Virus record (IMG/VR): IMGVR_UViG_3300025314_000006
Strand: one strand, 5' to 3'
DNA: 64,000 bases
Origin: a virus
Lineage: Duplodnaviria; Caudoviricetes
Position numbers and translations under genes: made by a program. Each line of letters begins with the position of its first letter. Position 1 is the first letter of the stretch. Of this stretch, positions 2,959 through 17,167 are shown one piece after another. The notes beneath the pieces were generated by a model, which did not search any database, was not told where the DNA came from, and was given only the letters and a program-made list of their open reading frames with translations.

Positions 2959-3034
2959 TGGCGAGTATGACCGGTCCTGACCCGGCGACCTCCTCATAGA
3001 CAGTGAGGCATTCTTCCAACTGAACTACACACTC
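2959..3034 (-). tRNA. tRNA-Asp(GTC), CCA encoded
   Basis: CCTCA-CT GTC TA-TGAGG; G73; T-loop GTCAGGA. Confidence 0.85.
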
Positions 3035-7753: not shown

Positions 7754-8101
7754 TTAAGTCGGTGATGTTATTAATTGAAATTTAGTAGGATGCGACAATC
7801 TATAATCAACTTGTCTTTCATCAACATATTCTCGATAATTAACATAACCTTTAACATATGGAGTTACGCGAGCATCGAAAAAAATAACATCTCCGTTATT
7901 TAACGCTCCTAATTTCTCAAATCCTTTTGTTTTGTTAAACCACAAATGGTCAGTAACAATTTTATCAGACTTATCCTTAATATCTTTTAAGAGTATTGTT
8001 TCTACAGGATATCCATGATAATTCTTCTTTGTTCCAAATTTCTCAAATATTCCACTAAATCTGTCCCGTATATTTTCTATTTTTTCTAAATCTTTTCTCA
8101 T
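7754..8101 (-). CDS. Hypothetical protein
   Basis: 115-aa ORF whose start overlaps the nadD stop. Confidence 0.65.
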   Translation of the reverse strand: MRKDLEKIENIRDRFSGIFEKFGTKKNYHGYPVETILLKDIKDKSDKIVTDHLWFNKTKGFEKLGALNNGDVIFFDARVTPYVKGYVNYREYVDERQVDYRLSHPTKFQLITSPT

Positions 8102-8670
8102 TGATAAAACCCTTTTCTTTTTATATAATTAGCAACTTGCGGTGCTAAAAAATCTTTCACATCTCTATTTTCCTTTATCTCGTTTCGGATAAATGTGGAA
8201 GACATTTCAATTAAATTAACATCAAACATTTTTACTTTTGGATGTAAAATTAGATTACCGCCATCGCTGGAGCTACGTGAATATACATAAATTTGATATT
8301 CTTCAAGTATTTTTTGATAATCTTTCCACTTGTGTAAGTTTTCTAAATTATCAGTTCCCATTATTATAACAAATTCATTTTCTTTAAATGTTTCTTTTAA
8401 TAAATTGAGCGTATCTATAGTATACGAAGGTTTTGATAAATTAAATTCAATATCACTGGCTCTCATATGTTCATTATCAATTAATGCCATATTAACCATT
8501 TTTAACCTTTCTTTTTCTGATAGTAGAGAATTTTTATCCTTGAGAGGATTGTGAGGAGATATTATAAACCACACACATTCCAATTCGGTATGTTCAAGCA
8601 TGTAAGACGCCAATATTGTGTGACCGTTGTGGATTGGATTAAAACTACCGAAGAATAAACCTATTTTCAT
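8098..8670 (-). CDS. nadD: Nicotinate/nicotinamide mononucleotide adenylyltransferase
   Basis: KIGLFFGSFNPIHNGH (HxGH), SPHNPLK, PSYTIDTL, IMGTDN, MSSTFIR; likely start is ATG 8670. Confidence 0.92.
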   Translation of the reverse strand: MKIGLFFGSFNPIHNGHTILASYMLEHTELECVWFIISPHNPLKDKNSLLSEKERLKMVNMALIDNEHMRASDIEFNLSKPSYTIDTLNLLKETFKENEFVIIMGTDNLENLHKWKDYQKILEEYQIYVYSRSSSDGGNLILHPKVKMFDVNLIEMSSTFIRNEIKENRDVKDFLAPQVANYIKRKGFYQ

Positions 8671-8752
8671 ATGTGATATTATTAAACGAAGATAATCATT
8701 ATAATGTTGCAACTAACTTTTTTAAACTATTTATTGAAAAAAGAAATATAAA

Positions 8753-12086: not shown

Positions 12087-12102
12087 TTTATTTATGTTTT
12101 TG

Positions 12103-12176
12103 GGTGCTATATCGGCTACGACCCGATTACCTTCTGTACCACAAACAGACACTCTACCAATTGAGCTAATAACACC
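12103..12176 (-). tRNA. tRNA-His(GTG)
   Basis: Encoded G-1:C73 pair; TCTGT-TT GTG GT-ACAGA; T-loop GTCGTAG. Confidence 0.85.
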
Positions 12177-14407: not shown

Positions 14408-14944
14408 TTATTCAGAACTCATAAGAGATTCTAAATCTACATGAGAAAAAGAAAGCTCTATTGTTTTTTGATTTAATATTTCAATTTCATTTTGAGTGGT
14501 TCTGTACTTTGTTTTGAAGTGTGAAATTTTACTTTTCACTTCCGTAGAAGTAACAGCCGGAATATATTCAACTTTTATTGATTTTCTTGTTCCGTTTCCA
14601 AGGTTCTCAAATTTTGTTGTTTTTGTTGGTTTAGTGCGAGCTAATGCATTTTCATAAATTGATAATAGCAATTTGTTATTATGCATAGAGCGAACTTTAT
14701 TGTCTACTTGATTTTCTTTGTTAAAAGAAGAAATCTTTGAATTTATTTCTTCAGAAAATCCAAGGGCTTTTTCCAAACGAGAAACAGCTTCTCCAAATTT
14801 TTTAATATCTGCCTCATCAGTAATGACCTGGTCATCTTCTTTAGTTGAACCAAGTGGAGCTCTAAAAGTTTCACTTTGAATAGATTGAACTGATTTAGAA
14901 ATTTCATTTTTAAGTCTTAGTGCTTCTGATACAGTAATGTTCAT
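14408..14944 (-). CDS. Coiled-coil protein (DIP1984/DUF6847-like)
   Basis: N-terminal SEALRLKNEI and C-terminal QNEIEILNQKT pattern; own promoter TTTG-19-TACATTTG at 14979-15009. Confidence 0.5.
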   Translation of the reverse strand: MNITVSEALRLKNEISKSVQSIQSETFRAPLGSTKEDDQVITDEADIKKFGEAVSRLEKALGFSEEINSKISSFNKENQVDNKVRSMHNNKLLLSIYENALARTKPTKTTKFENLGNGTRKSIKVEYIPAVTSTEVKSKISHFKTKYRTTQNEIEILNQKTIELSFSHVDLESLMSSE

Positions 14945-15010
14945 GATGATATATTTTAATTATTTATTGTTTGGGATACAAATGTAATAATAAATTTAAT
15001 ACAAACAAAT

Positions 15011-15160
15011 TTATTTACATTTTTCTTCTTTAGATAACTCTTCTATAATAACAGAAAGTTGTCCACATGCGGCACCGTTGTTAATTTCTGATTGAGTTGC
15101 CACTGCTACGGCATATTCAAAACCGCTTTCTTCTAATTGTTTTTTTATTTCTTCGTTCAT
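15011..15160 (-). CDS. 49-aa protein matching the C-terminal fragment of an RlmN-like enzyme
   Basis: MNEEIKKQLEESGFEYAVAVATQSEINNGAACGQLSVIIEELSKEEKCK*; contains the RlmN/Cfr AACGQL motif; absent from the ORF track. Confidence 0.7.
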   Translation of the reverse strand: MNEEIKKQLEESGFEYAVAVATQSEINNGAACGQLSVIIEELSKEEKCK

Positions 15161-15172
15161 TTTTTTGTTTTT

Positions 15173-16060
15173 TTAAATTAAAGTTAAACCGTTAAATCCA
15201 AATTTTAAATTCTTACCATTAAATACAACTAAATTAGAAGGATGTTCTGGCTTTAAAACGCATCTTGAGTATGCTTTTACAACCTCTATATCTAATTTTT
15301 CTGGTATATATAAATAGTTATTACATTTACAACTATCAAAATAATTCCATTGTTTTGATAATAACATTCTTTTCGTTTTAAAATCAAAACTCGAAAAGTC
15401 TATAAAATTTTCTTTACAAAAGTCATTAATTTTCATCAAAGAAACAAATCCAACATCATATATTTTTAAAAAATTTGCAAATTCTAAAAATTCGTATATT
15501 TCTTTCTCAGAATCAATATTGTTTTTAATTAGATTACAACTTAAATGTAGTAAGTTTTTGTTAATTAATTTTTCTTGAGCTCTTTTTAACTCTACGGTAG
15601 ATAATGCCTTAAAACCTAAAATTTCATTATTCTTAACATCTTCATAGTGATGTCTACTAATAGAAATGCTATCAAAATTATTTATTTCGCCATTCTCGAA
15701 TAAATTTAATAATTGAAATCCATTTGTGTTCATTACAAGAAATGTTTCCGGAAAGTAAAATCGAATTAAATCAATTATTTTATAAAGTTTTTTTAGTTCT
15801 AAAGTTGGTTCACCTCCAGTGATTGATATTTTTTTAACTTCAATTTCTTCTTTTAATGAAATTAAAGTTTGTTCAAATTTTTCAAAATCAAAAGCGTTTG
15901 CTACATTTTTAAACTCACAAAAAGAACAATTTGCGTTACATCCATTTAATTGAACATATAAATTAATATACGGTTCCGTTATTGGAACCATTTCACAGCC
16001 ATTTAATGAACAGTTATGAGATTTTAAATCTATAGTTTTCCCAAAAATAGTTGTTTGCAT
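15173..16060 (-). CDS. Radical SAM protein
   Basis: CNANCSFC (CxxxCxxC), ITGGEPT, NTNG. Confidence 0.9.
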   Translation of the reverse strand: MQTTIFGKTIDLKSHNCSLNGCEMVPITEPYINLYVQLNGCNANCSFCEFKNVANAFDFEKFEQTLISLKEEIEVKKISITGGEPTLELKKLYKIIDLIRFYFPETFLVMNTNGFQLLNLFENGEINNFDSISISRHHYEDVKNNEILGFKALSTVELKRAQEKLINKNLLHLSCNLIKNNIDSEKEIYEFLEFANFLKIYDVGFVSLMKINDFCKENFIDFSSFDFKTKRMLLSKQWNYFDSCKCNNYLYIPEKLDIEVVKAYSRCVLKPEHPSNLVVFNGKNLKFGFNGLTLI

Positions 16061-16062
16061 TT

Positions 16063-16374
16063 TTAACAGTGGCTAAAATTACTTGTTTTACCTCCTCTAC
16101 CACACGGATCTACATCAGAAGAATTAGAAGAAGATTTTCTCTTTAAGTCTTCAATTTCTTTTTTTAATTTTTCCAACTCTAAACATTTTTTATCTAATTC
16201 AATTTGTGTTTTACACTTTAATTTGAATTCTTTCAAAACTGCTTCTGAAATTTGCCCAGTATCAACAAGTGTTTTTTCTGCTGCTTCAACAAAAGTTTCC
16301 ATATCGTTTGGGTGAGTTTTAGAAAAAAATTTATAATATTCTTCCAAAAATGCTATTTCGTCTTTTTTTGCCAT
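16063..16374 (-). CDS. Hypothetical protein with a low-complexity Cys-containing tail
   Basis: Ends SSSNSSDVDPCGRGGKTSNFSHC. Confidence 0.65.
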   Translation of the reverse strand: MAKKDEIAFLEEYYKFFSKTHPNDMETFVEAAEKTLVDTGQISEAVLKEFKLKCKTQIELDKKCLELEKLKKEIEDLKRKSSSNSSDVDPCGRGGKTSNFSHC

Positions 16375-16381
16375 GTTGTTT

Positions 16382-17167
16382 TTATTTTAAATTTACACCT
16401 TCAATAACTCCTTCTCCAAGATGGTTATTATTAGAAACTTCATTTGGATTTATAGGACTTAATTTAATGAAAAAATTGTCCTTATCAAAATTTTCTTTTA
16501 ATTTATCAATATTAAAATCACTTTCATCAACTAAAGTCATGTTTAAAGTAGTTTTTAAGTTGCTGAAAGTTTTTATTTTTCCAAGTTCTGAAATTGTCAT
16601 TTTCTTTTTGTATGGAATTAGCCAATTTCTTTTTTCATCTTCCAGTGAATGCAAAGATACTTGAAGAGTGATATTATCTTTTATCCAACTAAAATCAGCA
16701 TCTTTAATTCCAATTGTAGAAACATAATGATGGGTATTTGAATACAAACTTGTAATTCTACGAATTGCTTCTTTAACATTTTCAACATTAAGTCCGAAAT
16801 CACCCATTCTGGTATAATTAATTTTAAACTCCTGGCTTTTAGATGGATCAATATCTTTATTTTTTTCAATGACAAACATTACTTGTTCAACTATTTCCTG
16901 AGCTGTTAAATTTCTCCATTTTTTCATTTGTCCAGTTGCACAAAATTTACAACGAATAGGACATCCTGACATTACGCTTACACCAATCATATAGCGCTCT
17001 TTTCGACTTCCTAAATTTTCATCTTTTAAAAAATTTTGGTGTTTACCTATTGCGTTTTTTGTGTAAAATGGAAGAAATGTATCAGTGGTTTCTATCAACA
17101 TTCCATCTTTTAACTTTAAACAATACACGGCTCCATTTGAGAATTCTTTTTTACCGGCGATTTCCAT
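16382..17167 (-). CDS. RlmN/Cfr-like radical SAM protein lacking its C-terminal catalytic-Cys segment
   Basis: VSVMSGCPIRCKFCATG, NLTAQEIVEQV, RMGD, VSTIG, LQVSLHS; no ACGQL in this ORF. Confidence 0.8.
   Translation of the reverse strand: MEIAGKKEFSNGAVYCLKLKDGMLIETTDTFLPFYTKNAIGKHQNFLKDENLGSRKERYMIGVSVMSGCPIRCKFCATGQMKKWRNLTAQEIVEQVMFVIEKNKDIDPSKSQEFKINYTRMGDFGLNVENVKEAIRRITSLYSNTHHYVSTIGIKDADFSWIKDNITLQVSLHSLEDEKRNWLIPYKKKMTISELGKIKTFSNLKTTLNMTLVDESDFNIDKLKENFDKDNFFIKLSPINPNEVSNNNHLGEGVIEGVNLK

Follow-up and report, generated by a model that had tools for sequence, protein, structure and literature searches.

A probable two-gene RlmN/Cfr-like radical SAM enzyme of phages, with its carrier cysteine on a separate small peptide

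A 64,000-nucleotide (nt) stretch of low-GC (~29% GC) virus DNA (IMG/VR record IMGVR_UViG_3300025314_000006; Duplodnaviria; Caudoviricetes), referred to in its entirety as the window, appears to encode a radical S-adenosylmethionine (SAM) enzyme related to RlmN and Cfr in two pieces. The larger piece is a 261-amino-acid (aa) protein, here called the core, and the smaller is a 49-aa peptide with the sequence AACGQL; from their sequences and predicted structures we consider it probable that the two form a heterodimeric enzyme of the class A type, and that phages have conserved this design as an invention of their own. The genes for core and peptide belong to a run of four consecutive open reading frames (ORFs) on the − strand, in the order core, protein X, a second radical SAM enzyme (rSAM2) and peptide, with spacers of 7, 2 and 12 nt (Table 1). 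A preliminary description of this DNA, made from the sequence alone, had recognized an RlmN-like ORF at 16382-17167 that ends before the AACGQL motif, and had found the motif two genes away in an ORF at 15011-15160; all four ORFs lie on the − strand where that description placed them.

An RlmN-type barrel that is incomplete at both ends

The relationship of the core to RlmN is clear and is confined to part of the protein. The NCBIfam RlmN model TIGR00048 aligns with the core at profile positions 101-253 of 355 only (E 2e-20; 72.8 bits, cutoff 290), the Cfr models score below this at ~50-55 bits (cutoffs 468-550), and the core falls beneath every curated NCBIfam cutoff tested for RlmN and Cfr. 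A phmmer search of the solved structures with the core returns RlmN chains and Cfr only. An AlphaFold model built from an alignment of 26 relatives (predicted local distance difference test score, pLDDT, 88) finds its best match in E. coli RlmN (3rf9_A; Z 22.3, root mean square deviation 2.7 Å over 230 residues), with residues 1-261 of the model lying on residues 80-333 of the chain; Cfr is a lower match (Z 15.6), and unrelated radical SAM folds reach a Z of about 12. The profile range and the structural alignment together identify the core as the barrel of RlmN, lacking both the N-terminal domain and the C-terminal segment in which Cys355 lies. Because the core is without the N-terminal accessory domain, with which RlmN recognizes RNA, RNA is no more than a candidate substrate.

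Within the barrel the CxxxCxxC cluster motif is present (CPIRCKFC, residues 69-76). At the column of the resolving cysteine (Cys118 in E. coli RlmN) the phmmer alignment to solved RlmN chains places Gly62, in the string MIGVSVMSGC, which bears out the glycine that the preliminary description had assigned to this position. The SAM-binding motif is MGDFGLN in the window core and in its two closest relatives, P0003 and P0004, and MGEPxLN in the rest of the family and in RlmN.

A 49-aa peptide with the putative carrier cysteine

The 49-aa ORF resembles the end of RlmN, from its last helix through the last strand to the loop, and contains GAACGQL. The AACGQL string is found once across the six-frame translation of the window, with ~1.6e-4 occurrences expected from composition, and the chance expectation for the 2.2 kb downstream on the same strand is ~3e-6. 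Among 26 aligned peptides 13 positions are invariant, and the AACGQL motif is invariant in all 26; the peptide family as a whole comprises 96 protein clusters. There is no match to the peptide among PDB sequences even at E 10, and none to either the peptide or X in Pfam and PHROGs. Judged by sequence, Cys32 of the peptide is the counterpart of Cys355, the methyl-carrying residue of RlmN. The loop motif of the methyl carrier is thus invariant but sits on a separate gene product, not on the core chain, and we infer that the carrier function is provided in trans.

Core and peptide genes are linked across relatives

Relatives of the core are encoded by phages of unrelated hosts, including Kehishuvirus (Bacteroides), Moorella phage MTATph1, Pectobacterium phages Arno18 and Wc4, a Yersinia phage and a Vibrio phage. 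A 40-63-aa ORF with an AACGQL-type motif follows the core in three of these (Kehishuvirus, the Moorella phage and Arno18), and a first set of loci that includes the three has a small AACGQ[LV] ORF downstream of the core and on the same strand in every case (27/27). A second set of 123 loci (80 from IMG/VR and 43 genome contigs, mostly binned phage contigs) has the small peptide ORF downstream on the same strand in 118, adjacent to the core in 95 and ~1.2 kb downstream in 23; several of the five loci without the ORF are cut contigs. Linkage in relatives, which the preliminary description had put forward as a check, is therefore near-universal.

The core family contains 2136 protein clusters at E <= 1e-5, and nearly all are ~260 aa long and share the same end point, the longer ones being N-terminal extensions, HNH fusions and one intein. 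The junction between core and peptide is variable: the ORFs are 2 nt apart with a frame shift in Kehishuvirus and 15 nt apart in frame in the Moorella phage, and they overlap elsewhere. Recoding or read-through joining the two products can be ruled out, since the frame and the spacing differ among relatives. The linkage and conservation across relatives indicate a conserved phage invention and not a damaged gene. A search of the literature found no paper describing a split or phage RlmN-like enzyme.

The core homologue P0221 (601 aa) has an intein with a LAGLIDADG-type endonuclease right behind its CxxxCxxC motif, and genes for GIY-YIG and HNH endonucleases are frequent near the locus.

Predicted docking of the peptide onto the core

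Co-folding of the core and peptide, with own alignments for both chains and with the 4Fe-4S cluster and SAM included, gives a score of 0.83, and the best of three controls reaches 0.02; in calibration, the mark applied to such scores was attained by 58 of 80 solved complexes and by two of 110 mismatched pairs. The runs share at least 83% of contacts, and the partner pLDDT is at least 76. There are several features of the predicted complex. First, peptide residues 14-18 pair as a strand with core strand 232-236. Second, the peptide loop region touches core residues 75-78, beside the cluster motif. Third, a core insert that is specific to the family (residues 39-47 and 52) contacts the peptide. 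Finally, nearly all of the peptide (residues 12-42) is buried on the core in the manner of a subunit. The two-chain prediction suggested in the preliminary description accordingly puts the peptide in the place of the missing last strand and loop, and the two-chain enzyme proposed there is well supported by the near-universal gene linkage, the 13 invariant peptide residues and this docking.

A clade without the resolving cysteine

RlmN uses both cysteines to make 2-methyladenosine (m2A) in 23S rRNA and at A37 of tRNA. In the core family, glycine occupies the resolving position in at least 90% of 26 members. A quick maximum-likelihood tree of 89 representative relatives, with support from the Shimodaira-Hasegawa-like approximate likelihood ratio test (SH-aLRT), separates a 50-row clade without Cys118 from a 39-row clade at SH-aLRT 99. 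In the 39-row clade, cysteine is present at this position in 37 rows and most members have a fused C-terminal CGQL motif. Not one of the 50 rows in the other clade has the cysteine; the residue is mostly Gly, and otherwise N, H, D, T, I, M, V, L or Y. Members of the Cys118-less clade are mostly split, with a C-terminally fused Cys segment in P0282, P0294 and P0364, and a peptide fused N-terminal to the core in P0222. In P0249, encoded on a 25-kb contig, the peptide, the core and a MoaA-like radical SAM domain form a single ORF of 695 aa. The two clades show no difference in charge or isoelectric point (medians +2 in the Cys118-less and +3 in the canonical clade).

In the mechanism reviewed for RlmN and Cfr a single chain carries both cysteines; the resolving one is reported to be indispensable, its mutation trapping a covalent enzyme-RNA adduct (PMC9692996). 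With the whole clade lacking Cys118, the reaction must therefore finish differently from that of RlmN and Cfr. The altered chemistry raised in the preliminary description stands in this general sense; the stable covalent peptide-RNA adduct that it offered as an example is somewhat weakened and is not supported, as the fused members named above belong to the same Cys118-less clade and would be single-use enzymes under it.

One phage contig encodes both kinds of enzyme. At L007:9943-10791 there is a compact 282-aa one-chain RlmN/Cfr-like protein that has the pair of cysteines (in ILCVPTQTNC and in SSCGQF of a fused tail), 3 kb from a split, Cys118-less core; given this co-occurrence, the one-chain and split types are probably not redundant in this phage.

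Genes between the core and the peptide

The model of rSAM2 (pLDDT 93) has MoaA as its closest solved fold (2fb2; template modelling score 0.64, 16% identity), followed by GDGT-MAS, BlsE, SuiB and viperins, with SkfB, CteB and the epimerase EpeE also among its neighbours. In addition to the cluster motif CNANCSFC, rSAM2 has four further invariant cysteines (17, 175, 244 and 246) and an SRHH motif. It scores 51.8 bits with the MoaA profile (cutoff 325), ends in LTLI and not in Gly-Gly, and matches no SPASM family of Pfam or NCBIfam; its family of 365 clusters is smaller than that of the core. Protein X consists of a helical N-terminal part and a tail rich in Cys, Gly and Ser, DPCGRGGKTSNFSHC, with Cys as the last residue. 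The tail is kept in 12 of the 13 loci compared, as Asp/Asn-Pro-Cys, a Gly/Ser-rich stretch and the terminal Cys, and L158 has no clear X. A Protein Atlas look-up of X gave no usable feature match, only weak helical look-alikes.

The arrangement of this pair relative to the core is variable. X and rSAM2 lie between core and peptide in the window and in L004, L006, L015, L122 and L160; L011 and L161 have them upstream of the core, and in L158 rSAM2 lies 3 kb downstream from the core and is followed by the peptide gene. A different two-gene cassette occupies the core-peptide gap at 21 loci (L118:8765-9953, L124, L127, L133, L137 and 16 others), and encodes a 255-268-aa MoaA/viperin-like radical SAM enzyme, distantly related to rSAM2 and with an unusual cluster motif spacing (Cx5-12CxxC), together with a ~150-aa class I SAM methyltransferase-like protein. 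The last domain of the single-ORF form P0249 matches the rSAM2 profile as well (96% probability, E 4e-9). None of 120 rSAM2 homologues inspected is fused to the peptide. About four in five core loci have no second radical SAM enzyme. We take a second MoaA-like radical SAM enzyme to be a recurrent and facultative partner of the two-piece enzyme. The two intervening genes of the preliminary description are thus present as it said, not as mere spacers but as a recurrent accessory module found beside the core in several arrangements.

A proposed reaction and its alternatives

A reaction can be proposed for the heterodimer by extension from RlmN and Cfr. There are strong indications that the peptide supplies the missing last β-strand, packed against core residues 232-236, and holds its invariant AACGQL cysteine loop at the mouth of the active site. 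One SAM would then methylate Cys32 of the peptide, and a second SAM would be cleaved to a 5′-deoxyadenosyl radical that takes a hydrogen from the S-methyl group. The resulting thiomethylene radical may then add to a purine at one of its sp2 carbons, with C2 or C8 of adenine as the most likely sites. Because the clade is without Cys118 and includes fused forms, resolution of the adduct would have to come from a different base or partner, unless the reaction ends otherwise than in simple methylation. X and the MoaA-like rSAM2 would probably extend or complete the same modification.

Several observations weigh against this proposal. The co-folding result may stem from intact RlmN structures already familiar to the model, in which case it shows likeness and not binding, and the calibration counts are only rough here, since the alignments and the riding ligands differ from those of the calibration. 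The tree comes from a quick search and is rooted at the midpoint. The window copy could be less active, with GDF instead of GEP in its SAM-binding motif. As to the accessory genes, X and rSAM2 occur without any core within 4 kb in L029, L030, L159, L162 and L163, and most core loci are without X and rSAM2; the core-peptide junction may be a favoured, or merely tolerated, spot for insertions.

An alternative that takes the loss of Cys118 at face value is that the peptide is sacrificial. The Cys-S-CH2-adenine adduct would be the end product, the peptide would be consumed as a tag on RNA or a nucleotide, and the core would take up a fresh peptide for each turnover. This accords with the absence of Cys118 from the whole clade and with the covalent enzyme-RNA adduct that is trapped when the resolving cysteine of RlmN or Cfr is mutated (PMC9692996), and a separate peptide would keep the core catalytic. 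However, the fused proteins of the same clade would be suicide enzymes, and peptide residues 12-42 are buried as those of a subunit would be in the predicted complex; we regard a sacrificial peptide as unlikely. Resolution independent of Cys118 seems more likely than a permanent peptide adduct, and is favoured because fused members exist in the same clade.

It is also conceivable, and rather doubtful, that the 49-aa peptide, X or both are precursors of the kind that gives ribosomally synthesized and post-translationally modified peptides, with both radical SAM enzymes modifying their cysteines and a modified peptide, in place of a nucleic acid, as the product. The recurrence of a second radical SAM gene beside the peptide gene is consistent with this, as are the peptide maturases SuiB, SkfB and CteB and the epimerase EpeE among the structural neighbours of rSAM2, and the conserved C-terminal two-Cys motif of X, which is like that of a core peptide. 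Nonetheless, the peptide shows homology to the C-terminal segment of RlmN, and the barrel is predicted to be complete only with it; a second radical SAM enzyme is absent from roughly four-fifths of the loci; MoaA, whose fold rSAM2 matches best, is a nucleotide enzyme; and Pfam and NCBIfam detect no SPASM domain in rSAM2.

Finally, that an ordinary rlmN gene was split by insertion of a two-gene cassette and is decaying deserves hardly any credence, for although two genes do separate the pieces in the window and the junction carries other inserts in relatives, the ORFs in most relatives are adjacent yet separate, with their own stop and start and in varying frames, thousands of intact copies share the same end point, conservation of the peptide is strong, the family at large lacks the N-terminal domain and Cys118, Rfam finds no intron or ribozyme, and a divergence of 30-75% among relatives excludes recent copies of one degraded gene.

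Neighbouring genes and the possible substrate

All ORFs adjoining the core were clustered, and independent core lineages were grouped at 75% identity (n=40). Metabolism of nicotinamide adenine dinucleotide (NAD) is the only recurring functional theme, present near the core in 16 of the 40 lineages: NadM/Nudix in nine, NAMPT in six, NAPRTase in six, ADP-ribosylglycohydrolase in five, NAD synthase in four and NadD-like genes in three, mostly on the strand of the core and 0-3 kb away. These counts are without a matched background, and the enrichment is suggestive only. In the window, a NadD-like nucleotide adenylyltransferase gene (8098-8712, −; Pfam CTP_transf_like E 4.5e-21, motif GSFNPIHNGH) lies among tRNA operons 7.7 kb downstream of the core. 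The huge phages of L030:2158-4882 and L163:2079-4867 have core-less X and rSAM2 genes directly behind genes for a PnuC-like nicotinamide mononucleotide transporter and a NadR-like protein.

In E. coli, RlmN makes the m2A37 of tRNA-Asp and tRNA-His. Of 23 loci, only the window, L019, L022 and L023 have a large tRNA array within 6 kb of the core, which is not clearly above chance. Twelve of the 16 phage tRNAs have A37; the tRNA-Asp and tRNA-His of the window (2959-3034 and 12102-12175, −) have U37 and G37, respectively. The case for a tRNA target drawn from these arrays was not upheld, and what the neighbouring genes suggest about methylation of adenine C2 or C8 in 23S rRNA A2503 or tRNA A37 is weak. 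The absence of the N-terminal domain argues against the RlmN mode of rRNA and tRNA recognition, and not against RNA as such. Overall, we would divide the chances roughly evenly among tRNA or another RNA, an adenine nucleotide of the NAD pathway, and other targets for the remainder.

To one more reading we give only a small chance. In a tagging or methylene-bridging system, the cysteine of the peptide would be bridged through CH2 to the adenine of an NAD-pathway nucleotide or of RNA, and modules like X and rSAM2 would process the adduct. If true, this would be a new phage modification of nucleotides or RNA for takeover or counter-defence.

Comparison with known radical SAM enzymes

To our knowledge, RlmN and Cfr are the only characterized class A radical SAM methylases. 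The phage system has in common with RlmN (C2-methyltransferase of 23S rRNA A2503 and tRNA A37; PDB 3RF9/3RFA, 4PL1, 5HR7, 6FZ6; TIGR00048) the barrel fold, the motifs GCxxxCxFC, SLH and SPxNP, and the AACGQL loop. It differs in that the cysteine loop is on a separate gene product of 40-50 aa, Gly replaces Cys118, residues 1-79 are missing, and it is encoded by phages. Cfr (C8-methyltransferase of 23S rRNA A2503; PDB 9P0P; TIGR04432) likewise has the class A architecture and the two-SAM ping-pong logic, but is a weaker match than RlmN (E 2e-13, with the lower Z given above) and keeps C105 and C338 on one chain. The phage system departs from the class A family in four respects: the single chain, the resolving cysteine, the N-terminal domain and the curated score.

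RlmN C118A trapped on tRNA (PDB 5HR6/5HR7) is, like the phage family, without the resolving cysteine and illustrates the course of the chemistry in its absence, but it is a single-chain dead end made in the laboratory. The loss of Cys118 in the phage clade is ancient, clade-wide and conserved, and a productive outcome is therefore needed. Similarly, rSAM2 resembles MoaA (GTP 3′,8-cyclase; PDB 1TV7, 2FB2), its best full-length fold match, in its cluster and in extra conserved cysteines that are possibly for a second cluster; it differs in sequence, in having no C-terminal Gly-Gly and in being paired with the Cys-tailed X, which MoaA does not have.

The clade occurs in phages of Bacteroidota, Firmicutes and Proteobacteria and breaks both the single-chain and the resolving-cysteine rules, offering a direct test of how an adduct is resolved without a second cysteine, or of a natural use of the adduct. 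The links to NAD salvage and to a second radical SAM enzyme point to a phage modification pathway not previously known, which might matter where phages and bacterial immunity compete for NAD. The cultured carriers Kehishuvirus tikkala, Pectobacterium phages Arno18 and Wc4, Yersinia phage P778 and Moorella phage MTATph1 make the system experimentally approachable.

Organization of the window locus

Table 1. Positions of the four ORFs and of their motifs in the 64,000-nt window.
Feature	Coordinates	Strand	Basis
RlmN/Cfr-like radical SAM core, 261 aa	17167..16382	−	Profile, phmmer and structural matches
Protein X, 103 aa, putative partner of rSAM2	16374..16063	−	ORF; tail motif kept in relatives
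Second radical SAM enzyme rSAM2, 295 aa	16060..15173	−	MoaA-like fold; motif CNANCSFC
49-aa peptide, putative counterpart of the last helix, last barrel strand and Cys355 loop of RlmN	15160..15011	−	Sequence, linkage and co-folding
Gly62 codon (position of RlmN resolving Cys118)	16982..16984	−	phmmer alignment to RlmN chains
CPIRCKFC, CxxxCxxC motif for the radical SAM [4Fe-4S] cluster (Cys69, 73, 76)	16940..16963	−	C69, C73 and C76 invariant
AACGQL motif of the peptide (Cys32 codon 15065-15067)	15056..15073	−	Invariant in 26 peptides; once in the window
SAM-binding motif MGDFGLN, core residues 123-127	16787-16801	−	Sequence

A scan of the window found no terminator inside the four-gene block, and the promoter and terminator counts are not above those of shuffled sequences. 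Rfam detected no intron or ribozyme separating core from peptide; its only match was a tRNA. Directly past the peptide gene and before the next gene (14944..14408) there is a promoter-like element at 14960-15010 (−), composed of TTTG, 19 nt and TACATTTG, which marks the end of the radical SAM block. The element resembles the −33/−7 promoter consensus of Bacteroidota, and hints at a Bacteroidota-like host.

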